In this document: positions 7,629 to 63,164 of the stretch, piece after piece
Layout: every line of letters begins with the position of its first letter
Position numbering within the stretch: position 1 is the stretch's first letter
Program-made: the position numbers and the translations under genes
IMG/VR virus record: IMGVR_UViG_3300028832_000097
Coordinates: 1 to 64,000 of that record
Source of the DNA: a virus
Taxonomy: Duplodnaviria > Caudoviricetes
Reading direction: 5' to 3' (one strand)
DNA length: 64,000 nt
The notes under the pieces: generated by a model
Told to the model about the DNA's origin: nothing
The model's input: the letters and a program-made list of their open reading frames with translations, nothing else
Database searches by the model: none

Positions 7629-7988
7629 TCAAGTCATTGAGTTAAACGCATCCCTTATCTGAGAAGTTGTGTAACTCTCAATAGGTTCAACGATCTGTAT
7701 ACAGTCTTTTAATGTTGAATATTCTTTATCTAATGTTTTATCAAACGGATACTCATAATCAAGTGCAAAAGATAATGCGTTATCATATACATTAGCGTAG
7801 TCGTATTGAAGCGGGATCATATTATAGTAAACATCTCCGCGTATCTTATTTATCTTGATCAGTGCTCTTTTCAGTACTTTGCCAGAATAATAGTTCAAAA
7901 TATTTGCAAGTACCCACGTGTCCTGCCCTGCAAAAGATTTAAGTAATTCTAGATTTGACTTCTTTGATGCAACTATGTATCGTTTCAT
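7629..7988 (-). CDS. leader-family protein (MKRYIVAS)
   Basis: Shared N-terminal leader; GGAGG RBS. Confidence 0.7.
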   Translation of the reverse strand: MKRYIVASKKSNLELLKSFAGQDTWVLANILNYYSGKVLKRALIKINKIRGDVYYNMIPLQYDYANVYDNALSFALDYEYPFDKTLDKEYSTLKDCIQIVEPIESYTTSQIRDAFNSMT

Positions 7989-8048
7989 ATGTTGTATTGT
8001 ATCCTCCGTTTATAACCAGAATCTGCATTATCTATTTATGGAATTAGC

Positions 8049-9020
8049 TTATTTCACAGGTTTTACAAGTGTCCTTATATGGAGACGCTGTACAGGCCCT
8101 GAGGCATATATCGACTCAACACGAGCCTTACCATCTTCCCCAATTACTACACCGTTGAGTACAGGACCAAGATTACCGCGTGTCAATTCAAGACCCTTCC
8201 AATCTCTTACAGGGCCTGTAATCTTAGTGACTCTCTTTAGTAAATCAAGGATCAAGCGCCTACCTGCTTGGTAATTTTCTTCATGGATTTTTGCATCATC
8301 CATATCCCACAAAGACATAGCATAACTTAGCGATCCATATTTATATTCAAACGGATTTATAACATACTCCTGTTTAAATTTACGATATCTATTATAATAT
8401 ACAACATCCGGATACATCTCTTCTAGCTTTTTGTCAGAAGCAAGTGCACTCCGGCTCTCGCCGTAAAGTATTTCATCTGCTTTGTGCTGAAGCTCTTGAT
8501 AGTAAGGTTCAGATTTATCACGAAGGTTGATATCATACTTGTCCCACTTATCAATCATTTCATTCATGAAATCTTTCAAACAGTCCGGAATCTCATCTAT
8601 CTCTTGCTCCTTAGCAGCTTCGGCAGCCAATTTCGCTTCGTACTTATCTAAAATGCCTTGTGCTTCTTTAATTGCTTCATTAGAATTAAATATAGATTCA
8701 GCTTCGTCATCAAGGCTGTACAGTGTCTTTCCTTCTGCATCTTCGTAAGTGTACCCGTATTTACGTGCAAGTCCCCACATATCAACTTTTAATTCTTGGG
8801 GAACTTTATATGATCTTGTAGTTTTTAATGCTTCAACATATCGAGAGATTGCAGACAAATCCGCATCAGAAATCTTGCCGGATAGAAGATTCAACTTCTT
8901 AGATATTGCATCTTCTTTCTTCTGAATCCATGCACGTTTCTTGTCAATCTCAGCTTGCTTCTTTGCAATCTTTGCTTGTATATCAGATATGTTCACTGCT
9001 GATTTAATGTATATTTTCAT
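8049..9020 (-). CDS. leader-family coiled-coil protein (MKIYIKSA)
   Basis: 323-aa ORF with the leader followed by a long helical region. Confidence 0.7.
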   Translation of the reverse strand: MKIYIKSAVNISDIQAKIAKKQAEIDKKRAWIQKKEDAISKKLNLLSGKISDADLSAISRYVEALKTTRSYKVPQELKVDMWGLARKYGYTYEDAEGKTLYSLDDEAESIFNSNEAIKEAQGILDKYEAKLAAEAAKEQEIDEIPDCLKDFMNEMIDKWDKYDINLRDKSEPYYQELQHKADEILYGESRSALASDKKLEEMYPDVVYYNRYRKFKQEYVINPFEYKYGSLSYAMSLWDMDDAKIHEENYQAGRRLILDLLKRVTKITGPVRDWKGLELTRGNLGPVLNGVVIGEDGKARVESIYASGPVQRLHIRTLVKPVK

Positions 9021-9077
9021 AATGCAACCTCTTATTAAAATGATAACTTTGTACCTTACTATATGATGAAATTAGTA

Positions 9078-9392
9078 TCAAATCCATGCAGCTGCTTCGT
9101 CACGGTATATATCGTCTAGGGCAGATAATATGTCATCAAACAACTCATCAGCCTCATCAACTGTGCAATCTTCCCAATCCTCTGCAGCTGCACTTTTGTA
9201 ATCACGAAGTATTTCCGATTGTCTAGAACCTATAGGGTTATCATAATCCTCTGTTTTAGAATACAGAGAAAGCAAGGTATTTCTGCAATCTTGAACCAAT
9301 TTGACCTTTTCTGGTTCAATAGAACTAAGAAATATCCATGATGCATTATACTGTTCAGGATCTTGCTTTGTTGATTTGATGTATCGCTTCAT
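9078..9392 (-). CDS. leader-family acidic protein (MKRYIKST)
   Basis: Leader; AGGAG RBS. Confidence 0.7.
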   Translation of the reverse strand: MKRYIKSTKQDPEQYNASWIFLSSIEPEKVKLVQDCRNTLLSLYSKTEDYDNPIGSRQSEILRDYKSAAAEDWEDCTVDEADELFDDILSALDDIYRDEAAAWI

Positions 9393-9434
9393 ATTGTAAC
9401 TCCTTTGAATTTATGATACACTTGCTATAACGAT

Positions 9435-10220
9435 TTACTGGAGTTTATATACATCTGCTGGATAATCACCATATGCAATTGCATTGAACCAATCATCAGT
9501 GCTATATGAACGAGTTCTGCCTGTTTGCTCATTCTTAATAATGATGAAATCACCATCACAAGCAAAATTATGTGCAGCACTTAAAGCTTCAGAAAAATCA
9601 TCTCCGGTGTAAGAATCTACAAGACCTTGGAAATTAGAATCGTAGTAGCCTTCTACAGAGTATTTATAATCCAATTCAGCAAGCTGATCGAAACCGCTAC
9701 CGGATGTAGAACAGTCAATAGGTAAATATTCATTAGTGTTTCTATCATATATGTGAGTACAGTTGTGATTACAACCCCAATCAAATGCTTCATCATATGA
9801 ATCAAACCCTGTATCGTAGTAGAAATCCTCAGTGCCGTCGTCTTCAATCCGACCTGCACTATATCTATGATCATAATTTGAATTGACTATGTCACAAGAA
9901 CTTGTTACTCGATTGCAATACTGCTCCGCATACTTTACAGCATCACTTAATCTGTAGAATTTTTTATTGGAACCTACAGACATAATAGGGCCTACATTTC
10001 CGTTCTTCATGCGGAATGCAATACTCAATTCATAATAGCGTTTATCGTCATCATCATATTGCATATCAAGCCAGATATAACCTTCATCATTAGGTAAGGT
10101 CTTGCTAAGTGTTGTCCAGTTACCATCGTCATCATTACCTTCAGGAATGATTGACCAACCTGCGGGCACTTTAGGATAGTTACTAGATGCTGTTATTGGG
10201 TGCTTTGTAAACTTCTTCAT
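9435..10220 (-). CDS. leader-family multi-domain protein (MKKFTKHPITAS)
   Basis: Leader plus internal VTS-S, VNS-N and IDC-S motifs between apparent domains. Confidence 0.7.
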   Translation of the reverse strand: MKKFTKHPITASSNYPKVPAGWSIIPEGNDDDGNWTTLSKTLPNDEGYIWLDMQYDDDDKRYYELSIAFRMKNGNVGPIMSVGSNKKFYRLSDAVKYAEQYCNRVTSSCDIVNSNYDHRYSAGRIEDDGTEDFYYDTGFDSYDEAFDWGCNHNCTHIYDRNTNEYLPIDCSTSGSGFDQLAELDYKYSVEGYYDSNFQGLVDSYTGDDFSEALSAAHNFACDGDFIIIKNEQTGRTRSYSTDDWFNAIAYGDYPADVYKLQ

Positions 10221-10230
10221 ACTTGTTACC

Positions 10231-10602
10231 TCAGTCTTCTAAAGAATAGAAATCAGGATTGCCAATTACTTCAAATCCTGCAAGTCTCATTTTATCTCGT
10301 ATCTGCTGTTCTATCACACTGGAGTTATATTCATTAACCCAAGTGAAATCTACACCAGCCTGGTAGATATCAAATTCTCGATATTCAGGTGAATCTGAAT
10401 AATCTACTTCGTCTAGGCTGAATCCTAAGACTTCACATCCATTGTCCTCGAAAACAGAAGTAAATATTTTTTCAATTGTATCCCATGCACTTCCTTGATA
10501 AAAGTAAGTTACAAAGAAATCAAGCCTAAAACCGGATGTGTGCTTGGTCTCAGTAGCTGATTTTACATAGCTACTAGGGTTTTTAGTAAATGTTCTTTTC
10601 AT
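10231..10602 (-). CDS. leader-family protein (MKRTFTKNPSSYVKSA)
   Basis: Long-form leader; GGAG RBS. Confidence 0.7.
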   Translation of the reverse strand: MKRTFTKNPSSYVKSATETKHTSGFRLDFFVTYFYQGSAWDTIEKIFTSVFEDNGCEVLGFSLDEVDYSDSPEYREFDIYQAGVDFTWVNEYNSSVIEQQIRDKMRLAGFEVIGNPDFYSLED

Positions 10603-10612: not shown

Positions 10613-10942
10613 TTAATCTACATGTGCAATTTCAGACAACCAGTCGTTGATAGAATATTCAGGACTCTTGCCTTTATGCACTTTTGCAGTAGTACCGTAG
10701 TTCATGTAATCATCTGTGTAAGTGTTCCTGACAGTATCATCCTTGAAAAAGATGAAATAGTAATACTCATCATAATCATCAGTATCATAGTTGTAACTAT
10801 CAGGATCATATACTAGGTATATTGATGTAACATTTTTACGAATGTTTGAATCATGAATCAAAGGCCGAAGTTCTCGAGTACATGATTTTACTAGCTTGTA
10901 TCCGTTGAATCGGTCTTCAGCTGATTTGATGTATCTTTTCAT
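10613..10942 (-). CDS. leader-family protein (MKRYIKSA)
   Basis: Start moved to the leader Met. Confidence 0.7.
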   Translation of the reverse strand: MKRYIKSAEDRFNGYKLVKSCTRELRPLIHDSNIRKNVTSIYLVYDPDSYNYDTDDYDEYYYFIFFKDDTVRNTYTDDYMNYGTTAKVHKGKSPEYSINDWLSEIAHVD

Positions 10943-10944: not shown

Positions 10945-11190
10945 TTAGAGCCCGCATTCATCTGTGTAATCAGATAGCAATTCTCCAAGTTCTTGCTTGA
11001 GTTCCTGGAACTGATTGAAGTCAGCAAGTTTCTTCCTATCTTTACCGTTATCATGCGAGATGTAAAGTTCAGCACCTGTGTAATCACCATCTTTGAAGTT
11101 AGATACAATATCCAATTCAAGTTCAATGGTAGATTTAAGATCCTCAGCGGCTTTTATAGCGGTTTTAGGCCGTTTTGTAAACTGTTTCAT
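10945..11190 (-). CDS. leader-family protein (MKQFTKRPKTAIKAA)
   Basis: Start moved to the leader Met (GGAG RBS). Confidence 0.7.
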   Translation of the reverse strand: MKQFTKRPKTAIKAAEDLKSTIELELDIVSNFKDGDYTGAELYISHDNGKDRKKLADFNQFQELKQELGELLSDYTDECGL

Positions 11191-11762: not shown

Positions 11763-11960
11763 TTAATCTTCTGCAAATGTTAATAGCAGAACTCTTGCAG
11801 AATCTAACAGTTCTACATCCTCATTAGATAATGCGTCAAACCTCGGATCATGAAAATCACCTAATGTCTGGAATCTCCAGAGAGCATCCGCTGCAGCCTG
11901 TGCTGCATCTCTTTGACGTTGAGTTTTACCACTCATGCTTGCGTTAACATATCTTTTCAT
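11763..11960 (-). CDS. leader-family protein (MKRYVNAS)
   Basis: Leader; GGAGG RBS. Confidence 0.7.
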   Translation of the reverse strand: MKRYVNASMSGKTQRQRDAAQAAADALWRFQTLGDFHDPRFDALSNEDVELLDSARVLLLTFAED

Positions 11961-11962: not shown

Positions 11963-12487
11963 TTATTCCTCCTCTGGATATAATTCAACACTTAGCAATA
12001 CATATCCGATTGCTTGCATAACATCTTTAACGATTTCTGGATCTACACCATTGTCAATTAATATACCTTCGCATTCATGTATGTTATCGTCAGTTAATAC
12101 TACACCGTCTAATACTTCCCCAGCTACTTTCATTATAGATTCGTTGGCGGGGTGCAATTCAGCAAGGTCTTCAGGAACAATAGCTTCAGATCCTTTCACA
12201 GAACATGAATAAATATCAAACGGAAATTCTACATCTTCGGCATCATTTTCTAGCCTGTCAACATCTTCCGGGGAAGCATATTGAATAAATGAACCTTCAT
12301 ACGGTAGCCCCGTTTTCCTATAACTGTATTTATCATCAACGATATTCTGTGCTTCTCTAGCAGAATGTGCCCAGATTAATTCCTCATGCCAACTGTAATG
12401 TGTGCCAGAATCGGCGTCACCATAGTCAAATCCTACTCGAGCAACAAATGGAATTAAGTCTTCAGAACTTCTAATGTACTTTCTCAT
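11963..12487 (-). CDS. leader-family two-domain protein (MRKYIRSS)
   Basis: Leader plus an internal IYS-C/VKG-S motif. Confidence 0.7.
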   Translation of the reverse strand: MRKYIRSSEDLIPFVARVGFDYGDADSGTHYSWHEELIWAHSAREAQNIVDDKYSYRKTGLPYEGSFIQYASPEDVDRLENDAEDVEFPFDIYSCSVKGSEAIVPEDLAELHPANESIMKVAGEVLDGVVLTDDNIHECEGILIDNGVDPEIVKDVMQAIGYVLLSVELYPEEE

Positions 12488-12557: not shown

Positions 12558-12917
12558 TCATACTTCCACATTAGAATATTTACGTTTCATTGTAATAGTT
12601 ACTTTATAAGGTTCAGGGTCGTTATCACCCTTGCCACCTGACCAATAATATGTAACAGATGAAATAGCATACCATATTTTAGCTTGCTTCAAATCAGAAA
12701 TTATAGTATCTACTACTTCTTGTGCTGCAGCCTTAGTATAATTACCTTCAGATGTTAACATTGTGTTATTTTGATAGCTCATCCCAATGTCCCAAACACC
12801 TTCTGCGTCTGCTGCAAGGATATCACATGCGATTCTACCCTCAGATGTCAGATTATCTATCTCACTTCGGCGGACAGATCCTGTAATTTTAGGATACTTT
12901 GTAAAATTTCTCTTCAT
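12558..12917 (-). CDS. leader-family protein (MKRNFTKYPKITGS)
   Basis: Start moved to the leader Met (AAGGTG RBS). Confidence 0.7.
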   Translation of the reverse strand: MKRNFTKYPKITGSVRRSEIDNLTSEGRIACDILAADAEGVWDIGMSYQNNTMLTSEGNYTKAAAQEVVDTIISDLKQAKIWYAISSVTYYWSGGKGDNDPEPYKVTITMKRKYSNVEV

Positions 12918-12930: not shown

Positions 12931-13308
12931 TCACGATTTGAACCAATCTGCAAACTCATAAGTATTGCAATGTACATCTTTACCTTCGGTAGTTTTAAAA
13001 TATGCCATAGCTAAATCTTCGGCGTATCTCCTAGCATCTCCTATAAGATATTCTAATAAAAGACCACCGCCTACTGTATAGTTAGAACCAACAACCCCGT
13101 CAAACTTAACATATGATGGAGAAGCAGATTCAATACGACACCTACCACCGACAAGCTTAAATGCCTCTTTTATATTATTTGGAATATCAGCATTCGCACC
13201 ATCAGTAATAGTATGAAACAAATCAGAATAGAGCTTATAATATTTCTGCTTATCAAACCCTGCAAACTTACTATCCAGCTCTTGATTACTTCTTATGTAT
13301 CTTTTCAT
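12931..13308 (-). CDS. leader-family protein (MKRYIRSN)
   Basis: First gene after the AACCTT motif at 13359-13364. Confidence 0.7.
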   Translation of the reverse strand: MKRYIRSNQELDSKFAGFDKQKYYKLYSDLFHTITDGANADIPNNIKEAFKLVGGRCRIESASPSYVKFDGVVGSNYTVGGGLLLEYLIGDARRYAEDLAMAYFKTTEGKDVHCNTYEFADWFKS

Positions 13309-13375
13309 AATGGAACACTTCCTTAAACAAATAGTAATGGTAGTTTATACATGTAATTAAGGTTCAATCAGGTTA

Positions 13376-17096: not shown

Positions 17097-17167
17097 GGTA
17101 TTGCCTCCTATAAGGATATTGTGTAGATAAAAGGTTACACCAAACATGTTACCTCGAATAACGATTC

Positions 17168-18148: not shown

Positions 18149-18177
18149 TAGACAAATCTGTGTATCTAATATATTAT
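18149..18177 (+). promoter_or_regulatory. sigma70/sigmaA-like promoter for the + strand endonuclease
   Basis: TAGACA-N17-TATTAT, 34 nt upstream of ATG 18211. Confidence 0.5.
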
Positions 18178-18210
18178 TATTATACAATAACTTTGAGAAA
18201 GGTAATTACT

Positions 18211-21223: not shown

Positions 21224-21712
21224 TTACTTCTCTATCGATTTCAGAACTTTACCTGTATCGTAATTTCTGAGTTCAACAAATTCGTCAAATTCGTCACTAT
21301 CTATAACTAATGCGTAGTAATCTTCGGCTTCATCTAAGTTATCAAACACCTTCTTATCTCCATCAAACCATACCAAGTAACGAGGTTTTCTGTGGATATC
21401 CGAAGACTCTTCAGAAGGTAAAACATCGGAAAATTTGTAGATTTCAAAATCAGGGTCTGAATTTTTCTCAGATTCTATTTCAGCATCCGTTGCAGGTGTA
21501 GCGTATGACCCAATGTAACTACGGTCATCTCGATAAGTTTCATTAGCCCACCACTCAGCTTCATTAGTGTCATTTGCTTCAACAAACGCGATAGCTTCCG
21601 ATACACATGGGCCAGATTCACAATCGCCTTCTTCAAAACCTGAAGATACTTTGAAAATTTGAGAAGCCTTTATAGGTTTTTGAGTTGTAGGATATTTTCT
21701 AAATTGTTTCAT
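21224..21712 (-). CDS. leader-family acidic protein (MKQFRKYPTTQKPIKAS)
   Basis: Long-form leader; AGGAGG RBS. Confidence 0.7.
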   Translation of the reverse strand: MKQFRKYPTTQKPIKASQIFKVSSGFEEGDCESGPCVSEAIAFVEANDTNEAEWWANETYRDDRSYIGSYATPATDAEIESEKNSDPDFEIYKFSDVLPSEESSDIHRKPRYLVWFDGDKKVFDNLDEAEDYYALVIDSDEFDEFVELRNYDTGKVLKSIEK

Positions 21713-22302
21713 CTCTTAAGCCTCCTATGTTGTTGGATAACACGTTCTCTGACATATTTTGGTAATGTACCCATAATATCATCAAATAATGTATCTGTAG
21801 TTTCAAGATTATCTGCTACGCGTAATCGTACAAGCATAGTATGATCTTGAGCAAGCTGTTCTATTACATCTCTAGGTGTGTTAATATTGCCAGCTACTTC
21901 GCCACGTACACTTTCGTCAGGATGCTCAGCTAACTTACGCAAAGTATCTTCTGAAGTATTAGCATTACCTGCTACTAACGCAAGTACCGTAATATTTTTG
22001 GATTTCTTAGCTAATCGTGATAAAGCATCCGGAGGAGTTTTATTAGATCTTGCTACTACAGCACGAACCCCATCATCTGTATCATTTGCAAGCATAGTAA
22101 ATACTGCATCAGGCGTACTAGGATTATTTGCAACAAGTATTCTAACAGATGATAAAGGATCTGCAGCGAGTCGCTTAAGAAGACGTGGATCTTCAGAATC
22201 CACTGCTAAGGATTTTCGCATACCTACATCTTGATTCTCTAGAGATTCTACAGCAGCTTTTACAGATGCATTTTGTTTAGGTAACTTAGTAAATTTATAC
22301 AT
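21709..22302 (-). CDS. leader-family HEAT/LRV-repeat protein
   Basis: MYKFTKLPK...VKAA leader; about 24-aa LAxDxxxxVRxxVAxNxxTP repeats. Confidence 0.75.
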   Translation of the reverse strand: MYKFTKLPKQNASVKAAVESLENQDVGMRKSLAVDSEDPRLLKRLAADPLSSVRILVANNPSTPDAVFTMLANDTDDGVRAVVARSNKTPPDALSRLAKKSKNITVLALVAGNANTSEDTLRKLAEHPDESVRGEVAGNINTPRDVIEQLAQDHTMLVRLRVADNLETTDTLFDDIMGTLPKYVRERVIQQHRRLKR

Positions 22303-22391: not shown

Positions 22392-22688
22392 TTACTTCGT
22401 TTTGTACTTTCTTGCAAATTCAAAAATCTGTCGAACAAAATCTCGAGAAACATCGTAGATATCTGTGAATTGTACTAATACTTCGTATAATGATGGATCC
22501 GAAATAACAAATCCGTCAAGCGCAGTACATAGACAGTATTCAGAAGGATCATCTTCGTTGATGCCTACCCAAATAGTATCTCCTTGATTATCATATGCTT
22601 CCATACTAAATGTTCCCGAAGCATCCTCTAGAATTATTGAAGTTATTGTAGGTTCGATATCATAAGATGTGTGTATGTATCGTTTCAT
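22392..22688 (-). CDS. leader-family protein (MKRYIHTS)
   Basis: Leader; AACCTT motif upstream. Confidence 0.7.
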   Translation of the reverse strand: MKRYIHTSYDIEPTITSIILEDASGTFSMEAYDNQGDTIWVGINEDDPSEYCLCTALDGFVISDPSLYEVLVQFTDIYDVSRDFVRQIFEFARKYKTK

Positions 22689-22739
22689 TGCATCTTACCC
22701 CTATTCTACAAATTAATTATATAAGTATTTAAGGTTGTA

Positions 22740-23064: not shown

Positions 23065-23466
23065 TCACCGTTCAAAATATATTGAAACAAATTGATTATT
23101 GCGAATATTAAATTTACATTTAGAAAATCCCTCAGAAAAGAGCAAATCGTCGATTTCAGACTTAAACTGATTTTTAGACGCACCTTCCTTTAGATAAAGT
23201 TCAGGATAGTGCCAAGACCTTGGAGGATCTGCACAAATACAGAATGTATAATTGAATTCTAACCGGAATCCATTATACGCTATTGTAGGAGCACCAAAGT
23301 AAGGCTCATCATGTGTTTCAAAATATTTCAAAACAACAGTCTCTAATTGGTCTGCTAATTCATGTTCGTACGCAGGAGTTAATTCCCCACTTTTATCATA
23401 ATCCCTTCCTAACAAAAAGGATGTAGCTAGGATTGTTTTAGGTGTAACACGATATTTCTTAACCAT
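23065..23466 (-). CDS. leader-family protein (MVKKYRVTPKTILATS)
   Basis: Long-form leader. Confidence 0.65.
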   Translation of the reverse strand: MVKKYRVTPKTILATSFLLGRDYDKSGELTPAYEHELADQLETVVLKYFETHDEPYFGAPTIAYNGFRLEFNYTFCICADPPRSWHYPELYLKEGASKNQFKSEIDDLLFSEGFSKCKFNIRNNQFVSIYFER

Positions 23467-23469: not shown

Positions 23470-23991
23470 TCACCTGCTCATGCGATCATACATTTCATAA
23501 GTGTCGTACCTATCATGTATCCTATAGCCTTTATAGGTGTGACCGTCATACATAGGGCCAGCATACTTGTGTAGCATCTCTTTGCGCTTCTCTTCGGATT
23601 GCGCAGGAACATAATCAGGATCATATATAGGATTAGCATGTAGCACTTTGTGGAATGTTGCAGGAATCTTTATTGGAGCGCCTTCGCCATAGATGGTAAT
23701 CTTGCCCTCAATTGTATCATCCTCTACAGGATATTCTTTGTAATCACGTGCTTTCCAATCAATAGAATCCCAAAGTATTTTATCATCTTCTGACCAATGA
23801 CCTTCAAATTTAGGGACATAAATCTTGCTATATACTCCTAATTCAGCAGCCGCACGCTGAATATCTGAAGGTTTCATGTACTTAACTAATGCGTCAACAA
23901 CATCTAACGCACCAATGTTACCATCATTCAGTGCGTTGTGTAAAATTTCAACCGCATCTGGACCGTAAGCTGCTCTAATGTATCGCTTCAT
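23470..23991 (-). CDS. leader-family protein (MKRYIRAA)
   Basis: Leader; AAGGAG RBS. Confidence 0.7.
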   Translation of the reverse strand: MKRYIRAAYGPDAVEILHNALNDGNIGALDVVDALVKYMKPSDIQRAAAELGVYSKIYVPKFEGHWSEDDKILWDSIDWKARDYKEYPVEDDTIEGKITIYGEGAPIKIPATFHKVLHANPIYDPDYVPAQSEEKRKEMLHKYAGPMYDGHTYKGYRIHDRYDTYEMYDRMSR

Positions 23992-36535: not shown

Positions 36536-36970
36536 TTATCCCTCTAACATTCCGATATTCAATAATGTTGTATATGCACTGTAGCGTACCACTTCATCAA
36601 AATCTTGTCTCAAATTACGCAAAGTATCTGCAGGTGTGTTATGATTGCTTGCAACTGCGCGTCGCACACTCACATAAGGATTTTTTGATAGTTGTGTCAA
36701 CGTATCTGCAGATGTATTTGGATTAGAAGCTACACAACCTGCAACTGCAGATATGTCCTTCGAAAGTTTGTCAAGCAATGCTGCAGGTGTGTTTGGATTA
36801 TCAGCCACCGCAGCACGGACAGACCAACTCTTAGAATTAGCTAATCTCCGTAATGATCTTACATCATCTGTGGTAATTGCAATATCTTGTTGTATATCGA
36901 GATCTTCATCTTCGACAGGCTGCACAGATGCATTTATAGTATATTTAGGACATATTGTATAATGTTTCAT
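36536..36970 (-). CDS. leader-family HEAT/LRV-repeat protein
   Basis: MKHYTICPKYTINAS leader; VRxAVAxNxNTP repeats. Confidence 0.75.
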   Translation of the reverse strand: MKHYTICPKYTINASVQPVEDEDLDIQQDIAITTDDVRSLRRLANSKSWSVRAAVADNPNTPAALLDKLSKDISAVAGCVASNPNTSADTLTQLSKNPYVSVRRAVASNHNTPADTLRNLRQDFDEVVRYSAYTTLLNIGMLEG

Positions 36971-36987: not shown

Positions 36988-38271
36988 TTACTTTTCTACG
37001 ATAGGAACGTATCCGTCATTGCAGCTAACAAGTGTAGGACACTCAGATTTATTTACTACAAGTTCTTTGATACCTGCGAAATCATAATCAGCATCTTCTG
37101 CGTCCCAAACAACTGTAAGCTTACTGCAGTTATCAAATACACCAATTGAAAGCATATCCTCATCACGGAGTGTTACAGATTGATCTAATTCGATATCTTT
37201 TGCAAAGGAATATGCACCGAATACAACACCTTCAGTATTGAATATTGCAGTCTTTAATTTAGTACAACGATAGAATGCTCTTTCACCAATATGTGTTACA
37301 CCGGATAAATCAATGTTAGTTAATGCAGAATCTTCAAACGCATTGCGACCAATTTTAGTTACATTATTAAATGTTACTTTAGTTACATTTGATCCCTGGA
37401 AGAAACTACCTTCAATACTTGTAATACTATTAGGAAGTACAACCTCTGTAACAGATCTAGGCAGTGCAATATCAGGAATCTCGGTTACACCTTCATCAAA
37501 CTTAACATATGTAGCAGAAGAGTCAATTCTTACAATACTGTTTGCACAGTAAGTTACACCATCCTTGACATAAACCTTGAAGTATTCCCCGATAACAGGA
37601 TGTTGTGCACAGAAATCATAGAAAGCAGGCATACCTTGAGAACGATCATCAATATCATACCAGGAATCTGTTTGAAGATGTAATTGATACTTCTCGCTAG
37701 GGTCAGATTTATTCAGGAAAATAAACAAAGGTCCTTGAGATGTGTATCGCTTCCAATAGTGATCATTACCTTCGTAGGCAGTGCACCAAGAAGCTTTTTT
37801 ACCACCATCCCTAGCAAGCGAAATTGATCCTGCGTAGGTGAGTGGTTGCCAAACTTCCCAATTATCTTCTGACACAAGGAATTTTTTATCGTCGTCCGAA
37901 GCATGATGTGCTTGTTTCTTGAGCAGTTTCGCTTTCTCTTTTTCTGTTAATTCTCTGTTACCTACAGCATGTGTTGCTGCTAGAAAATCTTCAAAAGTTT
38001 TATAAGCCCCAATATCTGGGTTAGGATATCTCTTGTACTGCTTAGAGAACAGGTCTAATGCGTCTTTCAGATTATCATAATCAGATTCTGTAATATTTCC
38101 TGCATTGTATTGTTTCAAGATCCAAGGGCAATACTTGCCCCCTTTACCCGAAGAATAATTAGAGGTAGGATCTAATTCAATTAATTCCGTAAATACATCC
38201 TCTGGAATTTCTTTTGCAAATTGTGTTTTAAGATTCTCTACGGATACCGCAGATCTAATGTATCGTTTCAT
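36988..38271 (-). CDS. leader-family protein with a WCT-motif domain and BspA-type (LRR_5) repeats
   Basis: MKRYIRSA; KYCPWI...WCT...GPLFI; VT.IG..AF..C..L repeats. Confidence 0.75.
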   Translation of the reverse strand: MKRYIRSAVSVENLKTQFAKEIPEDVFTELIELDPTSNYSSGKGGKYCPWILKQYNAGNITESDYDNLKDALDLFSKQYKRYPNPDIGAYKTFEDFLAATHAVGNRELTEKEKAKLLKKQAHHASDDDKKFLVSEDNWEVWQPLTYAGSISLARDGGKKASWCTAYEGNDHYWKRYTSQGPLFIFLNKSDPSEKYQLHLQTDSWYDIDDRSQGMPAFYDFCAQHPVIGEYFKVYVKDGVTYCANSIVRIDSSATYVKFDEGVTEIPDIALPRSVTEVVLPNSITSIEGSFFQGSNVTKVTFNNVTKIGRNAFEDSALTNIDLSGVTHIGERAFYRCTKLKTAIFNTEGVVFGAYSFAKDIELDQSVTLRDEDMLSIGVFDNCSKLTVVWDAEDADYDFAGIKELVVNKSECPTLVSCNDGYVPIVEK

Positions 38272-38298: not shown

Positions 38299-38679
38299 TT
38301 AATAGCCCCAATCGTCATCCCATTCTTCATCTTCAGAATAGGCATCGTCTAGTTCGTCATCTTCAATAGATTCTAACTGAGACATATCAAATTTTTCAAT
38401 CTTTTCATATGCCTTATCATCAATCCAACCCATAAATCGCTCAGGGTTGATCCAGCCAATATTCTTATCATCGTAGTAAATTACGCAATTTCCAGATTTA
38501 TCTGCTTCACCAAACTGAACATGAGGATCATTTACAATGTTCATGAATACTTGTAGCATCGGCTCGCCTTTGTGCTCTTTGAGAGAATTCTTTATGATCT
38601 GCTTAGGTGTAAATACTAAACTAGCAAGTTGTGTAGCTTTGTTTGTAAACTTATTTGCACATCTGATATACTTCTTCAT
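38299..38679 (-). CDS. leader-family protein (MKKYIRCA)
   Basis: Start moved to the leader Met (AAGGAGG RBS); acidic tail. Confidence 0.7.
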   Translation of the reverse strand: MKKYIRCANKFTNKATQLASLVFTPKQIIKNSLKEHKGEPMLQVFMNIVNDPHVQFGEADKSGNCVIYYDDKNIGWINPERFMGWIDDKAYEKIEKFDMSQLESIEDDELDDAYSEDEEWDDDWGY

Positions 38680-38852
38680 AATATCCTCCTTATAGGAATA
38701 CATAGTTTTAAATAATGATAACAATATGAAAGGTTATACACAGTTGAATGCATAACCTTAATATATCAAACGACATTGTAGGAGAATCCGCAATGTATTG
38801 TGACTGCTCTAGAAACCTGCAATGAATTTCCATTCATAGTAATAACAATTAG

Positions 38853-41341: not shown

Positions 41342-41791
41342 TCAATAACCGGAGTAAGGCAACTGCTTTTGCAAGTATTGCTCTAGTACCTGCTTCGCCT
41401 TCTGAAGGTCAGCATAATCGCGGATGATGATTTTGTATGTGCCCCATTGAGAATTTTGATAGTTACGAACTTCATCAAGCCCGAAATCATAAAATGCATC
41501 TAGTAATTGTGCATTATCCTTGCTGTCCAGAATTTCCAATACACAAGGATATTTATCAGCAGCCGAAGAACTATACAAGCCGCCCGGCACCCATCCAGAA
41601 GTATCTCGTCTACCTACGCATATGGAAAGTCCATGACCATAATCACGAGGAAATGAAAATACATATTGTTTTGATCCGGAAAGATAATCTTTCTTGAGAT
41701 TATATTCCGAAAATACACGAGTAACTGCATCGCAGATCTCGTCTTTGGTTGAAAATCCATCTGAACTGTTGGCACGAATATATCTTTTCAT
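41342..41791 (-). CDS. leader-family protein (MKRYIRAN)
   Basis: Leader. Confidence 0.7.
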   Translation of the reverse strand: MKRYIRANSSDGFSTKDEICDAVTRVFSEYNLKKDYLSGSKQYVFSFPRDYGHGLSICVGRRDTSGWVPGGLYSSSAADKYPCVLEILDSKDNAQLLDAFYDFGLDEVRNYQNSQWGTYKIIIRDYADLQKAKQVLEQYLQKQLPYSGY

Positions 41792-43694: not shown

Positions 43695-43916
43695 TCAGAA
43701 TTTGTTTATATATTTTTCGTAGATTGCATCAAACCCGCCTTCCCATCGCTCTATCCACTTAACGCATTCTTGCCGACTAGAAAATCCAGAATCGTATCCA
43801 TGTTCATATAAGTAATCTGATACTTCCTTAGCTTGTTCAGTATTTAATTCAGAATTCTGCGAAATGAATCTAGGGCTAAAGATTCCATTCCAAGACGCTT
43901 TTATATATCTCTTCAT
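43695..43916 (-). CDS. leader-family protein (MKRYIKAS)
   Basis: Start moved to the leader Met (AGGAGG RBS). Confidence 0.7.
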   Translation of the reverse strand: MKRYIKASWNGIFSPRFISQNSELNTEQAKEVSDYLYEHGYDSGFSSRQECVKWIERWEGGFDAIYEKYINKF

Positions 43917-43936: not shown

Positions 43937-44260
43937 TTACCAAGTAGCTGTCATAACTAATCTATTTCTTAGATATGCAGGTCTACCCTTGTATTTTATC
44001 ATACTCCTAGTGTTGAATTCACCCTTAGTCAGGTACTGAACATCTCGCTTTTCAAATGATATATCAAAACCATTATCAGCAAACCACTTACCTAACATTC
44101 CGTCGTCCATAACAAATTCTACAGTAGAATCTGGGCCGAACGGAATTACAATTCGATGATTAGCTAAATCAACTGTGCTTCCTTTGAAGCCCTCGGCAAA
44201 CTCAACCGCTTGGTCTAATGTTGATTTTGGTATTTCTGTGCATCTAATGTATCGTTTCAT
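43937..44260 (-). CDS. leader-family protein (MKRYIRCT)
   Basis: Leader; GAGG RBS. Confidence 0.7.
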   Translation of the reverse strand: MKRYIRCTEIPKSTLDQAVEFAEGFKGSTVDLANHRIVIPFGPDSTVEFVMDDGMLGKWFADNGFDISFEKRDVQYLTKGEFNTRSMIKYKGRPAYLRNRLVMTATW

Positions 44261-44287: not shown

Positions 44288-44689
44288 TTACTCATCATAA
44301 CGACGTGTATAATAATGCAGACGTTTCTGCAGATTTCGCATACAATTCTTTGTGCGCCATTCTGATTCGGTCCACTCGATAGTTGAACTAGTTTCACCAA
44401 TGACTGTAAATTCAAATCGAATGACTATCACATATTCACCCCAAACCATGTGTTTAGGGAATACTTCAATTTCGTCAATCTCTACATTAGGGTATTTATT
44501 AGCAAAAGCAACAAGTTTTGGCTCTACTTCTGCTAGTAATTCAGCACATTCATTATCCATCAAAGATTGACGTTTCTCAGCTGCGTTGCGACGATTACTA
44601 GCAATATCATCAGAAATTGGATATTCATACACAATCTCATTGGACTTACTTAAAAAATTTGTTGTTGTAGATTTAATGTATCGTTTCAT
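44288..44689 (-). CDS. leader-family protein (MKRYIKST)
   Basis: Leader. Confidence 0.7.
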   Translation of the reverse strand: MKRYIKSTTTNFLSKSNEIVYEYPISDDIASNRRNAAEKRQSLMDNECAELLAEVEPKLVAFANKYPNVEIDEIEVFPKHMVWGEYVIVIRFEFTVIGETSSTIEWTESEWRTKNCMRNLQKRLHYYTRRYDE

Positions 44690-44969: not shown

Positions 44970-45875
44970 TCACCAATCATATTCAGTTTCAAGTATCTTA
45001 CGCATACTTGTAATTTCACGACGAATACTACGAAGTTGTTTGAATGCTTCTCGTGTAGCATAAGAATTAAGTCCCATATCTTCTCCATATTTTTCTATAC
45101 TCTGCTTGACAGATTCGAGGCTATGAAGAGCAATCCTATAATCACGAACTGAATTTCCAAAACGATGCATTAGATTTTCATATGCGGTGCTAGAATAATC
45201 AAGATTACCTTCACGGTCCTTACCAAACGTGAATGAATCTACGTTGAATAGATCATCTTTCAGAGCTGCAAGGTCATCATGAACTTCTTGAGCTGTTTCA
45301 GCAAGTTTGTCTAACCCCTCCTTAGAGCTATAGAATTTTAACAGTCTTTCATCAGGATTAGGGATTATGTAGCCTGACTTATCACGTTTATCACTACCAT
45401 ATCTACCGCGAGAAGTTGTTCTACCTTGTGCGGACCAACCGCCTGCATCCCAACTAGACGCGTCTTTGTAGTATTGACCAGCATACTTGCCATATTGATC
45501 ATATCTAGGATCTTGATAGCGCTCCTTACTAGGCTTGGCGTTATCTGCGATATTTACATAGACAATGTCTGCAATAGGCAGATTTTTCTTTGCAATATAC
45601 TTTACTGCCTTATATCCACCATCATAAGGATCTGTGAAATACTCGTTGTCGTTGTATAGTCCTGGAATCCAAACTGTAGGCCATGTGCGAGATGCACCCT
45701 GTTTCTGCAATAAGTAGACTGTATACTGCTCGCCACTTTTTCCTGTTTTTGATGTGCTGAATGTAGCATTCTTCAAATCAATTCCAGCCCTAGCAAGTGC
45801 TCTGAGCGCATTCTTATCATTTTGCAGCCAACTAGGTATCCAGTTATCAAATGATGCTCTAATGTACCTTTTCAT
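44970..45875 (-). CDS. leader-family protein (MKRYIRAS)
   Basis: 301 aa; AAGGAG RBS; AACCTT motif upstream. Confidence 0.75.
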   Translation of the reverse strand: MKRYIRASFDNWIPSWLQNDKNALRALARAGIDLKNATFSTSKTGKSGEQYTVYLLQKQGASRTWPTVWIPGLYNDNEYFTDPYDGGYKAVKYIAKKNLPIADIVYVNIADNAKPSKERYQDPRYDQYGKYAGQYYKDASSWDAGGWSAQGRTTSRGRYGSDKRDKSGYIIPNPDERLLKFYSSKEGLDKLAETAQEVHDDLAALKDDLFNVDSFTFGKDREGNLDYSSTAYENLMHRFGNSVRDYRIALHSLESVKQSIEKYGEDMGLNSYATREAFKQLRSIRREITSMRKILETEYDW

Positions 45876-45957
45876 ACGATTTCTCCTTTATGTGGGTATA
45901 GTTACTTCAACTAATTACTCAATTGTGTAGTATCATAACATATGAAAGGTTAAAGCA

Positions 45958-57891: not shown

Positions 57892-58236
57892 TTACTGGTC
57901 TACTAAATAAGCGCCATTTGAATTGTATCGTTTGTCCTTTGCCATAGCATACATCTTAGCTTTTGCTTCTTGCTTAGATTGTGCATATACACATAACGAT
58001 AATTTATGTTCATTGGGTAGTATGAATTCGTATTTATTGACCTCAGGTTCTACATGTGCCTCCTTCACAGAAGGATTTTGTATTTCTACCCATGACTTTG
58101 CGTCCTCGAGATCAATAAATGTTTCTACTACATTATCAAACTCATCTCGAACAATGTATTGATTTCCATCCTTCTCAATGCTGTCATAGGTGTATGAAGC
58201 GCTTATGTACTTTGGAGTTACTCTAAATGATTTCAT
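57892..58236 (-). CDS. leader-family protein (MKSFRVTPKYISAS)
   Basis: Long-form leader. Confidence 0.7.
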   Translation of the reverse strand: MKSFRVTPKYISASYTYDSIEKDGNQYIVRDEFDNVVETFIDLEDAKSWVEIQNPSVKEAHVEPEVNKYEFILPNEHKLSLCVYAQSKQEAKAKMYAMAKDKRYNSNGAYLVDQ

Positions 58237-58242: not shown

Positions 58243-58575
58243 TTACCACCGTGGATAATTTTCCTTGAAATCCTCAAACGTATACACCTTAGGTAAGTAA
58301 TTATCGTATCCAGGAGCTACAGGTGCAATTGTCTCATCATCGAACTTAACTAAATACATGTAGTCTTCACTAGAATAATTATCACGAGGAATCAATGCGC
58401 AGATTATTGTACTATTAGGGAAATGACGATAGATCCTATCTTCAAAATAATCGGACTCATAATCGTCTCCGCCGTAATCATTATAGAACTTATCTAAATC
58501 CATACATGTAAAGTATTTGTTCCACCAACCGCGTCTAGATGTTGCAAGTATAGGTGTTTTTCTAAATTGCCTCAT
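58243..58575 (-). CDS. leader-family protein (MRQFRKTPILATS)
   Basis: Long-form leader. Confidence 0.7.
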   Translation of the reverse strand: MRQFRKTPILATSRRGWWNKYFTCMDLDKFYNDYGGDDYESDYFEDRIYRHFPNSTIICALIPRDNYSSEDYMYLVKFDDETIAPVAPGYDNYLPKVYTFEDFKENYPRW

Positions 58576-59075
58576 AGTACAATCTCCCCGGTTTCTACAT
58601 TCTTTATTTCAAAATCTTGGTCAGTGAATTCGTATAATCCGCATTCATGGCATCTCTGAACTTCAAGATCTAGCCTATCAACGCACTCCTGCAATGTGCC
58701 ATATTCGTTACCATACTCACCATATCCTTGTCCGGATATAGGAAGTCCTGTAGCTTTATCAATGACAACAAATACGCGTTGATAAGCTTCAGGAGTTACG
58801 CCACATTCAACACACTCAGATTCACTGCCCCAAATATCTTCTTCTTTTTGAATCCATTCAGGATAGATATCATACTGTTTAAGTTCTTTAGAAGTAAGAA
58901 ATCTATCTAAGTATATAGCAGTAAACCAATGAGGTAGATCCTCCGACTTTAGAAGTGTTACATCTTTAGGAAGTGTTCCAGGGCCTGTGCCGTGTTTTGT
59001 TAAGTAACGATAACCTTCGCCAGGATACTCTCTAGAAGCTTTTACATACTTAGGAGATACTGTAAATTTACGCAT
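58572..59075 (-). CDS. leader-family protein with a DarA C-terminal-like domain
   Basis: MRKFTVSPKYVKAS leader; YRY...G.GPGTLPK...Y.DR.LT..E...YDI.P resembles the DarA_C pattern. Confidence 0.6.
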   Translation of the reverse strand: MRKFTVSPKYVKASREYPGEGYRYLTKHGTGPGTLPKDVTLLKSEDLPHWFTAIYLDRFLTSKELKQYDIYPEWIQKEEDIWGSESECVECGVTPEAYQRVFVVIDKATGLPISGQGYGEYGNEYGTLQECVDRLDLEVQRCHECGLYEFTDQDFEIKNVETGEIVL

Positions 59076-59701: not shown

Positions 59702-60037
59702 CTATTGATTATCTTTAATTACTATATGCCACAACCCATCTACCATAGGACTATATCCTACTGCAAGTTCAATGCCATCAGGAGTATGTAGTATCCAGAT
59801 AGGAAACACCCTACCATGACGTTGAGATATATCATAGACAGCATTAGTAGCTTTAGCAACAGAGGATACAAACTGCTGTGTATCTTCGTCAGTTGCGTCA
59901 TCTGGGATCAAAAAATCAAACCATGTTTCGTCTTCGCCGTAATCTACTAATTCATAATCAGTAGTATCCAACATACCAAAAATTTGATCTTGAATTTTTT
60001 CAAGGCCTGAAACAGACGATTTAATGTATCTCTTCAT
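59702..60037 (-). CDS. leader-family protein (MKRYIKSS)
   Basis: Leader; GGAG RBS. Confidence 0.7.
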   Translation of the reverse strand: MKRYIKSSVSGLEKIQDQIFGMLDTTDYELVDYGEDETWFDFLIPDDATDEDTQQFVSSVAKATNAVYDISQRHGRVFPIWILHTPDGIELAVGYSPMVDGLWHIVIKDNQ

Positions 60038-60060: not shown

Positions 60061-60558
60061 TTACCAAATATCAAGTTCACCAAGAGCTGCTTCTATGATA
60101 TAATCAGTATCTTTATCAATATCTTTAATAAGATCGGACTTAGGTATCTGAAATTCGTGAATAGTTCCTTTACTACTATAAACGATCAAATAAATATTGT
60201 CGATGCTTTCATGGTAAGTAGAGGTAGCATCATAACTCTCTAATGCCGCGTCTACCTCTTCCATAAGATCTTCATAATAATTTAAAGTGTCAGCTTCATC
60301 AGATTCTCCTGTTATGATATCTAGCGAAGGACTAATACTAACTGTGTTAGTTGCAGAAAAGATGTCAGCTGAAAATTCGTCAGTTAATAGTTCATACAAC
60401 CTGTCATCGTCGCAGATAACTTCTAAAAGTTCGTCAGCATCTACGTCTAGAAGGTCATTCACACCGAATGCATCACGAAGTTTATCACCATAGACCGGCT
60501 GATTCTCATCTATCCAATCAATGATTTCTGAAATATCAACTGAATGCTTGTTGCTCAT
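60061..60558 (-). CDS. acidic two-domain protein, paralog of 60912-61550
   Basis: IIDWI.E and HEFQIPKSDL...DTDYI match IVGWL.E and EEFNVPLSDL...DLDYV. Confidence 0.65.
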   Translation of the reverse strand: MSNKHSVDISEIIDWIDENQPVYGDKLRDAFGVNDLLDVDADELLEVICDDDRLYELLTDEFSADIFSATNTVSISPSLDIITGESDEADTLNYYEDLMEEVDAALESYDATSTYHESIDNIYLIVYSSKGTIHEFQIPKSDLIKDIDKDTDYIIEAALGELDIW

Positions 60559-60779
60559 TCCTCGCCTCCGATAATGTCCGCAATCTGTGCAATTATATCT
60601 GTTAACTGTGCATGTAGCTCATTTGCTACTTCAATACCAGAACTACGTGAAGGTCCGCCGTCTCGGTCAAGCTTCTCTAATCCACTTACTGCGTAGTCAA
60701 AATCATCTTCAATCACGTCAATCATATCTTTGAGACGTGTGTCTTCAGATGCTTCAGCACTCATAATTACTCGTTTCAT
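60555..60779 (-). CDS. leader-family protein (MKRVIMSA)
   Basis: Leader; AACCTT motif upstream. Confidence 0.65.
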   Translation of the reverse strand: MKRVIMSAEASEDTRLKDMIDVIEDDFDYAVSGLEKLDRDGGPSRSSGIEVANELHAQLTDIIAQIADIIGGEE

Positions 60780-60911
60780 ATTGACACCTCATAATTAACA
60801 GTATTTGTATATTAGTATTTAAGGTTCAATCACAACAATAGCCGAAGTGTGCCTACTCCGACTACTATTGTGTACGCAATATGTATCACCATGACAAATG
60901 GAGATCAAATA

Positions 60912-61550: not shown

Positions 61551-61564
61551 ATTTAAAATCCTCC

Positions 61565-62026
61565 TTAGTATTCATCATCTGAATCGTCATCTTGGTCATA
61601 TCCAATATCATCATCCTCGTCTTCATCTCTCAGGACAAATTCATAAGGACCTGAACAATTATAGATATCACCTTCTGTAGGTTCTGATTCTAGCGAACTA
61701 ACAAAATCTGGTGTTAAAACTCTATCAGCAAGTTCGACAAGCAACTCAGCGTAATCTGACTCATCTACACAATCCTCAATGCCATCTAATATCGATTTAG
61801 TGATAGGAACATATTTAACTAACCAGTTAGCATAAGATGATAGATCATTTGCCCATCCAGCTAAAAGGTGCGTATTATCAAATACGTCACCGTCATTGTA
61901 AAATTTAAAAATCAATTTGTTGATAGCTGTAACCATTTGTGTAGCTTTAGAAGGACCCTGGCCACGAGCAGGTAGATATTCTGATAGCACGTCATCAAAT
62001 TTATTGAAATAACTAGAGCTAATCAT
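61565..62026 (-). CDS. hypothetical protein with an acidic tail
   Basis: GGAGG RBS; LP..G...A...L....YNDGD motif. Confidence 0.65.
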   Translation of the reverse strand: MISSSYFNKFDDVLSEYLPARGQGPSKATQMVTAINKLIFKFYNDGDVFDNTHLLAGWANDLSSYANWLVKYVPITKSILDGIEDCVDESDYAELLVELADRVLTPDFVSSLESEPTEGDIYNCSGPYEFVLRDEDEDDDIGYDQDDDSDDEY

Positions 62027-62030
62027 TTTA

Positions 62031-62909
62031 TTATCCTCCGACAGAAGCTAACTCAGAAGGGAGATCCCAATATTGAGGTTCACCAGATGCATCGTATACA
62101 GGACCTGTAGTAGTTTTGCGAATACGCTGTGTATACTTGAACATATCAACTACTGAAGATTCTCTACCATCAGCCTTAAGTTTTTCATAATCATCTTTGT
62201 AATGAGAAGGTATTACGTTTACAACGTATTGGGAAGGTGTTTCTCTTAATATTCTAAGATATACGTTACGACCCCAATATGGTGAATTCTCCCAATTGTA
62301 TACAAGAATTGCAACGCCCTTATCACCTACAATATCTTCCATATCTGCAGTAGCAAACTGTGAGTCCCAATTTTCATATGCAGGTTTTTCTGGTAAAGGT
62401 TCTCCTTCATTCCAGGTATTAGGAGCTTCTTTATCCAGCAGGTCTTTCCAATCTACATCATTTAGATATTCAAGTGCAAACAATGTTTGTCTCAAGGATT
62501 TCAACTGTGCAGGTGTTGTTGCGCTCAAACCGCTCCACGAACCTGTGTCAGAAACAACATTGCCATTGTAATCAAGTCCGACTTCGTACTCCCATCTGAG
62601 TGCATCATCGTCGCTCCTGTCAGATTCATTACAACGAATTCTAACCTTAACGTATGTGCGCTCACTATCATAAGATGCAGGATATGCAATATCAAATTGT
62701 GCAGAAACCTCAAATCTAAGCGTGTTGAACACTTTCAGATTCTGCATTATTTCTTCTTTGATGGGTTCAGTTATTGCTTCCCTAGCCTCTCGAGCTACTC
62801 GAGATTTTGCTTTATATGCATCTTCATATGCTTGGGACTTCGCATCATAATCAGCTTTGCGCGTTTCAACCTCAATGCGATTTGCACGCTTTGTTGCAGT
62901 AATCTTCAT
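62031..62909 (-). CDS. protein with a minimal leader (MKITAT)
   Basis: 292 aa; GAGGAGG RBS. Confidence 0.65.
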   Translation of the reverse strand: MKITATKRANRIEVETRKADYDAKSQAYEDAYKAKSRVAREAREAITEPIKEEIMQNLKVFNTLRFEVSAQFDIAYPASYDSERTYVKVRIRCNESDRSDDDALRWEYEVGLDYNGNVVSDTGSWSGLSATTPAQLKSLRQTLFALEYLNDVDWKDLLDKEAPNTWNEGEPLPEKPAYENWDSQFATADMEDIVGDKGVAILVYNWENSPYWGRNVYLRILRETPSQYVVNVIPSHYKDDYEKLKADGRESSVVDMFKYTQRIRKTTTGPVYDASGEPQYWDLPSELASVGG

Positions 62910-62912
62910 AAA

Positions 62913-63164
62913 TCAATCCTCCTCAAAATCAGATGTTTCCCAAAAATGAGTAGCAAACCAATCATATGCAAGATCCATTGCTTCTTCGGCAGTATGCACA
63001 TCCAAGTAATCTCCCCATTTGTTATGCATCTTGAATGCTACATTACTTAGAGCATTGTAAACCTCAGATTTTAATTCTGCTTGAAACTCATCAAAAGAAC
63101 TATCTAGAGATGCTTTGATAGGTGTTGAGCGCTTAGCGCTTGGGTTGTGTTTCATGATCTTCAT
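62913..63164 (-). CDS. leader-family protein (MKIMKHNP...PIKAS)
   Basis: Long-form leader. Confidence 0.65.
   Translation of the reverse strand: MKIMKHNPSAKRSTPIKASLDSSFDEFQAELKSEVYNALSNVAFKMHNKWGDYLDVHTAEEAMDLAYDWFATHFWETSDFEED

Follow-up and report, generated by a model that had tools for sequence, protein, structure and literature searches.

An N-terminal peptide shared by unrelated proteins of an uncultured contractile-tailed phage, probably removed by its head protease

We analysed a 64,000-nucleotide window of the virus record IMGVR_UViG_3300028832_000097 (Duplodnaviria; Caudoviricetes), and found that many of its proteins, although unrelated in their bodies, begin with the same short peptide, called here the tag or leader. 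The window covers the opening 64 kb of a single contig of 170,977 bp with a guanine-plus-cytosine (GC) content of about 36%; the phage is contractile-tailed, and the minus strand holds nearly all genes of the record. Through a pattern scan of all ATG-started frames, 32 tagged genes were identified in the window and 49 in the whole genome, about one fifth of its proteins. All were located on the coding strand, and the same patterns gave one spurious open reading frame (ORF) on the non-coding strand. We consider it quite probable from the sequence that the head protease of the phage removes the tag; the full model, in which the tag is a T4-style capsid-targeting and cleavage signal that also loads its proteins into the capsid, is favoured with more reserve. 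Positions are those of the window unless prefixed with G000:C1, which marks coordinates of the whole record, and the features are collected in Table 1.

The original prediction listed 30 starts, 16 of a short and 14 of a long form, and all 30 proved to be ATG codons of minus-strand open frames of 65-427 residues with N-termini as described; two short-form genes (8049-9020 and 60555-60779) lay beyond that list. The information content of the short form at positions 1-8 was 5.5, 3.8, 3.8, 3.8, 3.6, 2.1, 2.3 and 1.5 bits, and from position 9 onward the signal was at small-sample background (0.4-0.7 bits), indicating a sharp boundary after residue 8. The long form shares its last four positions with the short form, and these are preceded by an aromatic residue at position 4 or 5, then Thr-Lys-x-Pro and a spacer. 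The two forms have one architecture: both open with basic residues and an aromatic one, reading Met-Lys-Arg-Tyr when short and Met-Lys-x-Phe when long, and both close with [IV]-x-[A/S/C]-[S/A/T]. In the long form these two parts are separated by a spacer of about 4-9 residues that includes Thr-Lys-x-Pro, and in the short form they adjoin directly. The tag length is 7-8 residues in the short form and 11-17 in the long form.

After removal of the first 22 residues, the 49 proteins fell into 46 unrelated BLAST families at E<1e-3, and the sole family with more than one member was composed of four LRV-repeat proteins. Synonymous codon variation was found at nearly every conserved position (AAA/AAG; CGA/AGA/AGG/CGC; TAC/TAT; ATT/ATC/ATA), in agreement with the original prediction. 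In other contigs, homologues of the tagged proteins retained the tag while their bodies had diverged to 25-60% identity; homologous bodies carried a short tag in one genome and a long tag in another, and orthologues varied at residues 2-3 and kept Tyr, Ile and Ala. Judged from these sequences, the tag is under protein-level selection and portable between unrelated bodies. A role of the conserved start as nucleic acid, either as a translation-initiation enhancer or as a homology block for cassette recombination, with a peptide that has no role, would suit its A-rich codons (AAA, AGA, ATT, AAA), which often favour initiation, and the location of tagged genes in hypervariable cassette-like islands. 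However, the codons vary while the amino acids are kept, the two leader forms have only the peptide motif in common, orthologues change residues 2-3 and retain Tyr, Ile and Ala, and the same peptide motif is present inside the capsid and scaffold proteins, so that we regard this explanation as very improbable.

Arrays of tagged genes were also detected by pattern scan in other IMG/VR contigs, for example ten genes in 9 kb, and the array-bearing contigs, when long enough, encode the same protease family. Exact copies of the tag in five complete relatives numbered 19, 3, 5, 16 and 0, on the coding strand only, and a reversed control gave none. Around the capsid gene, for which 52 related loci were taken from IMG/VR, seven tagged genes had homologues in 0 of the 52 loci whereas the neighbouring head genes had them in 20-52, indicating hypervariable islands of tagged genes. 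Some relatives have a tagged gene within the head operon, beside the protease, or show the tag as part of a conserved protein of that operon.

The leader was absent from the ligase, the helicases and the SbcC-like protein, as had been claimed for replication genes, and also from the portal, sheath, terminase and capsid protein. No tagged protein contained a 19-residue window above 1.6 on the Kyte-Doolittle scale, which bears out the claim that a hydrophobic region is missing. A Sec, Tat or lipoprotein signal peptide was therefore rejected, since no hydrophobic core follows the basic N-terminus.

The head module provides the candidate enzyme. The capsid protein matched Pfam Gp23 with 57.1 bits (cut-off 24.4), and the protease matched Peptidase_S77 with 34.2 bits (cut-off 27); the protease ORF is composed of the S77 domain (residues about 15-160) and then about 330 residues of predicted long helix. 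The best match of the protease model in PDB was T4 gp21 (5JBL; template-modelling (TM) score 0.67, root-mean-square deviation 2.4 A, 24% identity), and herpesvirus proteases were distant second fold matches (TM about 0.4, E 0.02-0.1). A sequence-profile search of PDB with the protease alignment returned only coiled coils, so the relation to gp21 rests on the Pfam and fold matches; by sequence and fold the enzyme belongs to the S77 (T4 gp21) family. This S77 gene is the only one in the genome, and no S78 or ClpP protease was found there as a second phage protease. Through alignment of 27 homologues (37-54% identity), His66 and Ser121 were found to be invariant and are predicted to be catalytic.

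If this enzyme cuts the tag, the motif at the tag end should recur in the head proteins, a check proposed along with the original prediction, and it was present above chance in both the capsid propeptide and the scaffold tail of the protease. The motif [IV]x[ASC][AST] occurred 10 times in the scaffold half of the protease against 2.95 expected from shuffled sequence (P=0.0004), and 4 times in capsid residues 1-85 against 0.97 expected (P=0.007), and no other protein of the genome is as dense in the motif as the protease. It was this simpler P3/P1/P1' pattern that proved informative; a position-specific scoring matrix of the full six tag positions is dominated by Tyr at P4 and Lys/Arg at P2, and for that reason returned few sites inside the proteins. 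About 45 capsid propeptides, strongly divergent from each other, contained 4-6 motif copies each, and the last pair of sites was conserved just before the mature domain. Among the 27 protease homologues, Ile-Ala-Ala-Ser was found directly after the protease domain in all 27, Val-Thr-Ala-Ser about 40 residues from the C-terminus in 21, and five more positionally fixed motif sites in 20-25; their N-termini are short basic propeptides ending in [IV]-x-[AS]-Asp. A complex predicted from protease residues 12-160, with the alignment, and the 73-residue protein with the consensus leader scored 0.17 (mark 0.32), which counts neither for nor against binding.

No near-identical DNA was found among GenBank phages. 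The closest isolates were Bacillus phage SP-15 and Streptococcus phage GXN1, with only 23-26% identity in portal or protease. Phage GXN1 (Streptococcus phage vB_SagM-GXN1, PQ819873.1) is cultured and has a distantly related protease-scaffold gene, and we found that it carries an N-terminal tag of its own, Met-Arg-Leu-[VI]-[RK]-Leu-x-Glu, at the start of at least five small ORFs that are unannotated and belong to the structural region (record positions 122094-134500). Exact matches to this pattern numbered six on the coding strand and one in a reversed control, and the opposite strand had none. In the same phage, [LI]xE occurred 4 times in capsid residues 1-65 against 0.92 expected, and 19 times in the scaffold against 7.6; the Ala-type motif was not enriched in the capsid N-terminus or the scaffold of GXN1, and the head proteins of the present phage showed no excess of [LI]xE. 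The tag end matches the motif of the head proteins in three lineages (the present phage, GXN1 and T4), a co-variation seen at the level of sequence, and GXN1 could serve as an experimental model for tag-based loading. In Bacillus phage HSE3, another relative by its protease-scaffold gene, the 41 kb that we inspected contained no shared tag; phages of this protease lineage therefore do not all carry one.

A host protease might remove the tag instead, in the manner of Prp, the Firmicutes protease of ribosomal protein L27, which trims capsid and scaffold of the staphylococcal phage 80alpha. Prp substrates likewise have a short N-terminal extension followed by Ala-Ser (PMC9405229), and the low GC content and the Gram-positive phage relatives fit a Firmicute host. 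We give this explanation almost no credence: the Prp motif is Leu-Gln-Phe-Phe, cut before Ala with Phe at P1 (PMC9405229), while the tag has Lys/Arg at P2 and no Phe-Phe; and 80alpha is without a protease of its own, whereas the present phage has one, with matching motifs in its scaffold tail. Processing of the Prp/L27 type was rejected, since the motif Leu-Gln-(Phe/Leu)-Phe is absent and the tag reads Tyr-Ile-(Lys/Arg)-(Ala/Ser).

The nearest known counterpart is the capsid targeting sequence of T4, a 10-residue propeptide of the internal proteins IPI, IPII and IPIII that is removed by the prohead protease gp21. T4 tags end in Ile-Ala-Glu and gp21 cuts after Glu; residues 4 and 7 of the tag serve targeting, and residues 8 and 10 processing (PMC9026906). 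As in T4, a short N-terminal peptide is common to fast-evolving proteins with unrelated bodies, this peptide opens with Met-Lys-x-Tyr, which makes position 4 aromatic, and its end is the motif also used on the gp23-family capsid protein and the scaffold by a gp21-family protease, a use suggested here by sequence statistics and conservation. The tagged loci are hypervariable like the internal-protein loci of T4. A short site is present at the N-terminus of the present protease itself, and T4 gp21 likewise has one near its own N-terminus (PMC9026906). An ADP-ribosyltransferase with an ART-PolyVal domain is among the tagged proteins, encoded outside the window, and recalls T4 Alt, which is packaged and processed by gp21 (PMC9026906). 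The two systems differ in the P1 residue, which is Ala/Ser/Cys here and Glu in T4, so that the tag does not follow the (Leu/Ile)-x-Glu rule; in the number of tagged genes, 49 here against a handful in T4; in the charge of the cargo, acidic here and basic in T4; and in the fusion of the present protease to its scaffold.

The giant phages phiKZ, 201phi2-1 and SPN3US also package many proteins in the head and remove N-terminal propeptides with a diverged gp21 homologue at a short motif (PMC9026906), and these propeptides carry redundant sites (PMC9026906, PMC10052503). Their enzymes cut after Glu, and their propeptides are mostly long (20-254 residues) and protein-specific with no shared tag, unlike the peptide described here; in SPN3US the cut substrates number only nine, against 42 head proteins left uncut (PMC10052503). 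All gp21-family enzymes studied so far cut after Glu (PMC9026906, PMC10052503).

The predicted site logic of the present protease is closer to that of herpesviruses. Like pUL26 and pUL80a of human cytomegalovirus (HCMV), the polypeptide is composed of an N-terminal serine protease, a scaffold and a C-terminal tail (PMC4498786). The apparent cleavage is Ala|Ser with a branched hydrophobic residue at P3, and HCMV substrates are built on Val-Val-Asn-Ala|Ser-Ser (PMC13486704). The invariant site after the protease domain and the site near the C-terminus mirror the release and maturational sites. By fold and sequence, however, the enzyme is nearer to T4 gp21 (TM 0.67) than to the herpes proteases (TM about 0.4, E about 0.02), and on these comparisons it resembles herpesvirus assemblin (S21) in site logic and is probably not a member of that family. 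To our knowledge, no cargo tag has been described in herpesviruses. Encapsulins offer a functional analogy only: a short terminal peptide suffices to load unrelated cargo into an HK97-fold shell, but this peptide is C-terminal, uncleaved and binds the shell protein directly, and encapsulins have neither protease nor DNA. From the sequence comparisons, the tag is most likely a T4-style signal re-coded to Ala/Ser at P1, herpesvirus-like rather than Glu.

We propose the following course of events. The shared N-terminus would be a removable propeptide of the capsid-targeting kind, on proteins that would be made late together with the head proteins. It would draw the cargo into the core of the assembling prohead, which would be built around the protease-scaffold fusion (G000:C1 78596-80071). 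The activated protease would cut after a small residue, with Ile/Val at P3 and Ala/Ser at P1, and would cut the same motif in the capsid propeptide, its own N-terminus and the scaffold tail. The mature, mostly acidic cargo would remain in the head and would probably pass into the next host along with the DNA. The original prediction had described an address-label system with an [IV]-x-small cleavage specificity that loads injected effectors. Its cleavage-code half is well supported at the sequence level, by the head module, the motif enrichment, the conservation and the co-variation, cleavage itself and the exact scissile bond being predictions; prohead addressing, packaging, injection and effector function are proposed by analogy with T4.

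Intergenic DNA of this phage and of its relatives contains two recurrent promoter-like motifs, which bear on when the tagged genes may be expressed. ATCGTTA is located mostly upstream of replication genes, and AACCTT-N9-TATAAA upstream of the head, sheath, terminase, tail and fibre operons; the timing of both is suggested by gene content only. The two motif classes divide the genome into transcription units of a replication type and of a structural type. It had been claimed that most leader clusters follow the motif of the structural genes. This held for most clusters of the window, which follow the motif that precedes the sheath, terminase and head operons; genome-wide, 31 leader genes were found there against 17 behind ATCGTTA, and the link of leader genes to the AACCTT motif is a tendency, not a rule.

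Several observations weigh against a cleaved, head-targeting tag. The cleavage motif consists of few and common residues, and Ile, Ala and Ser abound in coiled coils. Internal copies of the motif in the cargo bodies were not depleted (27 against 19.8 expected), so that there is no sign of selection against being cut; folded cargo domains may be inaccessible to the protease despite their internal motifs. One complete genome of the clade is without an exact short-form tag, no tagged genes were found in the sampled flanks of portal relatives with 60-67% identity, and 17 of the 48 leader genes genome-wide are behind ATCGTTA, the motif typical of replication genes. A literature search found no virion proteome of this clade. 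The cargo is a large, hypervariable and mostly acidic set, in which 90% of the proteins have an isoelectric point below 6 and none above 8.5; T4 internal proteins are basic. Finally, the conserved Thr-Lys-x-Pro of the long form is not explained by cleavage.

This last feature would favour a tag that acts as a handle for some other partner, such as a modifying enzyme, a chaperone, a degradation adaptor or an unconventional export route. We judge such a handle improbable: the tag lacks a hydrophobic core for Sec or Tat export, and another partner would not explain why the tag ends in the motif enriched in the capsid propeptide and scaffold, or why the two co-vary across lineages. A radical-SAM-linked tag was also considered and rejected, as PF04055 gave no match in the 171-kb genome.

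The chief rival is a tag that the protease cuts from proteins which never become delivered cargo. These could be transient core or filler proteins of the prohead that leave the head once cleaved, or cytoplasmic proteins whose activity or lifetime is switched by the cleavage late in infection. The acidity of the cargo resembles that of the T4 scaffold and core proteins gp22, gp67 and gp68 and differs from the basic internal proteins; several small, conserved acidic proteins encoded in the head region have a less strict form of the tag (G000:C1 67678-68082; window 60555-60779); and the cleavage-motif evidence is silent on where the proteins end up. We nevertheless hold this alternative to be rather unlikely, since most tagged genes are strain-specific and mutually unrelated, which fits accessory effectors better than assembly parts, and most of the tagged proteins have one site, at the N-terminus, where scaffold proteins have several and are cut to fragments. 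The prohead proteases of this family act inside proheads (PMC9026906), which makes a switch in the cytoplasm unlikely.

Some small acidic proteins deserve mention beside the tagged set. The product of 60555-60779 is conserved in at least ten related contigs, where its leaders are variable and basic and all end in [IV]-x-A/S. Of 52 relatives, 32 conserve the acidic 134-residue protein encoded at G000:C1 67678-68082; its N-terminal peptide is basic and ends in [IV]-x-Ala-Asp, two Ile/Val-Lys-Ala-Ser sites are located in its basic C-terminus, and from its sequence it looks like a prohead core protein trimmed at both ends. Four small acidic neighbours in the window (59085-59444, 59462-59680, 60912-61550 and 62031-62909) have looser basic N-termini ending in [IV]-x-[AS]. 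The protein at 60912-61550 also contains a strong internal site, Ile-Thr-Ala-Ser near residue 127, and may be a two-domain protein that is split.

Little of the cargo could be classified. A Pfam search of 43 tagged proteins gave only LRR_5, LRV/HEAT (four proteins) and ART-PolyVal, and an ESM Atlas look-up of two large cargo proteins gave nothing usable. If delivery is correct, the 49 mostly unknown proteins of this genome, including the ADP-ribosyltransferase and the LRR/LRV proteins, would be a candidate list for host takeover and counter-defence, and the injected proteins of hundreds of uncultured phages could be read from the tag alone, which would also be a minimal handle for cargo loading; the 8-residue tag could possibly become a tool for packaging foreign proteins in phage heads. 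The gp21-family proteases would then not be confined to cutting after Glu, and a T4-type enzyme with Ala|Ser logic and a scaffold fusion would bridge the two best-studied systems of capsid maturation. The clade is known only from metagenomic (IMG/VR) contigs, and a literature search that included the tag string found no published description of the tag. Jointly, these phages (about 125-250 kb) may have re-coded T4-type maturation from a Glu cut to a herpesvirus-like Ala|Ser cut, with a protease-scaffold polyprotein bearing sites like the release and maturational ones and a 7-8-residue tag loading up to one fifth of the proteome as interchangeable cassettes for delivery; this composite picture is put forward tentatively.

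Table 1. Tagged genes, promoter-like sites and head or tail genes. Positions are those of the window unless prefixed with G000:C1 (whole-record coordinates); lengths are in residues.
Feature	Position	Strand	Length	Remark
Short-leader gene	7629..7988	-	119	
Short-leader gene	8049..9020	-	323	Ile-3 variant; homologue in related contig L036 retains leader
Short-leader gene	9078..9392	-	104	
Long-leader gene	9435..10220	-	261	
Long-leader gene	10231..10602	-	123	
Short-leader gene	10613..10942	-	109	
Long-leader gene	10945..11190	-	81	
Short-leader gene	11763..11960	-	65	Val variant
Short-leader gene	11963..12487	-	174	
Long-leader gene	12558..12917	-	119	
Short-leader gene	12931..13308	-	125	First behind late-type promoter-like site
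AACCTT-N9-TATAAA site	13344..13364	-		Upstream of 9.4-13.3 kb leader cluster
Long-leader gene	21224..21712	-	162	
Long-leader gene	21709..22302	-	197	LRV/HEAT repeats; short leader on homologues elsewhere
Short-leader gene	22392..22688	-	98	Homologue in related contig L008 retains leader
AACCTT-N9-TATAAT site	22716..22736	-		Upstream of 22688
Long-leader gene	23065..23466	-	133	Loose form
Short-leader gene	23470..23991	-	173	L008 homologue has long leader
Sheath	24987-27164			
Intergenic promoter-like site	27254-27274			
Portal	29508-31010			
Terminase-like ORF	32608-34521		637	
Intergenic promoter-like site	35044-35064			
Long-leader gene	35075..35563	-	162	LRV-family body
Long-leader gene	35581..36534	-	317	LRV repeats
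Long-leader gene	36536..36970	-	144	LRV repeats
Short-leader gene	36988..38271	-	427	BspA-type LRR_5 domain; homologues with short or long leaders
Short-leader gene	38299..38679	-	126	
AACCTT site	38715..38735	-		Upstream of 35.0-38.7 kb leader cluster
Short-leader gene	41342..41791	-	149	
Short-leader gene	43695..43916	-	73	Consensus leader
Short-leader gene	43937..44260	-	107	
Short-leader gene	44288..44689	-	133	
Short-leader gene	44970..45875	-	301	Orthologues retain Tyr-Ile-x-Ala, residues 2-3 vary
AACCTT site	45924..45951	-		Upstream of 41.3-45.9 kb leader cluster
Long-leader gene	57892..58236	-	114	
Long-leader gene	58243..58575	-	110	
Long-leader gene	58572..59075	-	167	
Short-leader gene	59702..60037	-	111	
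Short-leader gene	60555..60779	-	74	Val variant; acidic
AACCTT site	60806..60826	-		Upstream of 57.9-60.8 kb leader cluster
Loose long-leader gene	62913..63164	-	83	
gp23-family capsid protein	G000:C1 77098-78570			
gp21-family (S77) protease	G000:C1 78596-80071			Fused to coiled-coil scaffold

Other genes of the record were noted in passing. The terminase-like ORF gave weak matches to terminase profiles in two separate stretches (residues 109-181 and 476-533), and the split may reflect an insertion. Between portal and terminase, a conserved 516-residue protein of unknown family is encoded at 31032-32582.

An IS607-type pair (41918-43669) is located within a cluster of tagged genes; its serine resolvase is encoded at 43223-43669, and its TnpB/OrfB_IS605 protein, which has a Cas12f-like TNB domain, at 41918-43171. 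A second TnpA/TnpB-like pair lies near G000:C1 142210-143992. Three large HNH/homing-endonuclease-like genes of about 600 residues were revealed (13376-15208 and 15294-17147 in the window, and G000:C1 74998-76908), with Mom-like and methyltransferase-like matches in their C-terminal halves. One of them is directly downstream of the capsid gene, and homologues occupy the same place in 27 of 52 relatives. A rare plus-strand gene at 18160-19854 encodes 564 residues with three DUF7487 stretches and may be a mobile insertion.

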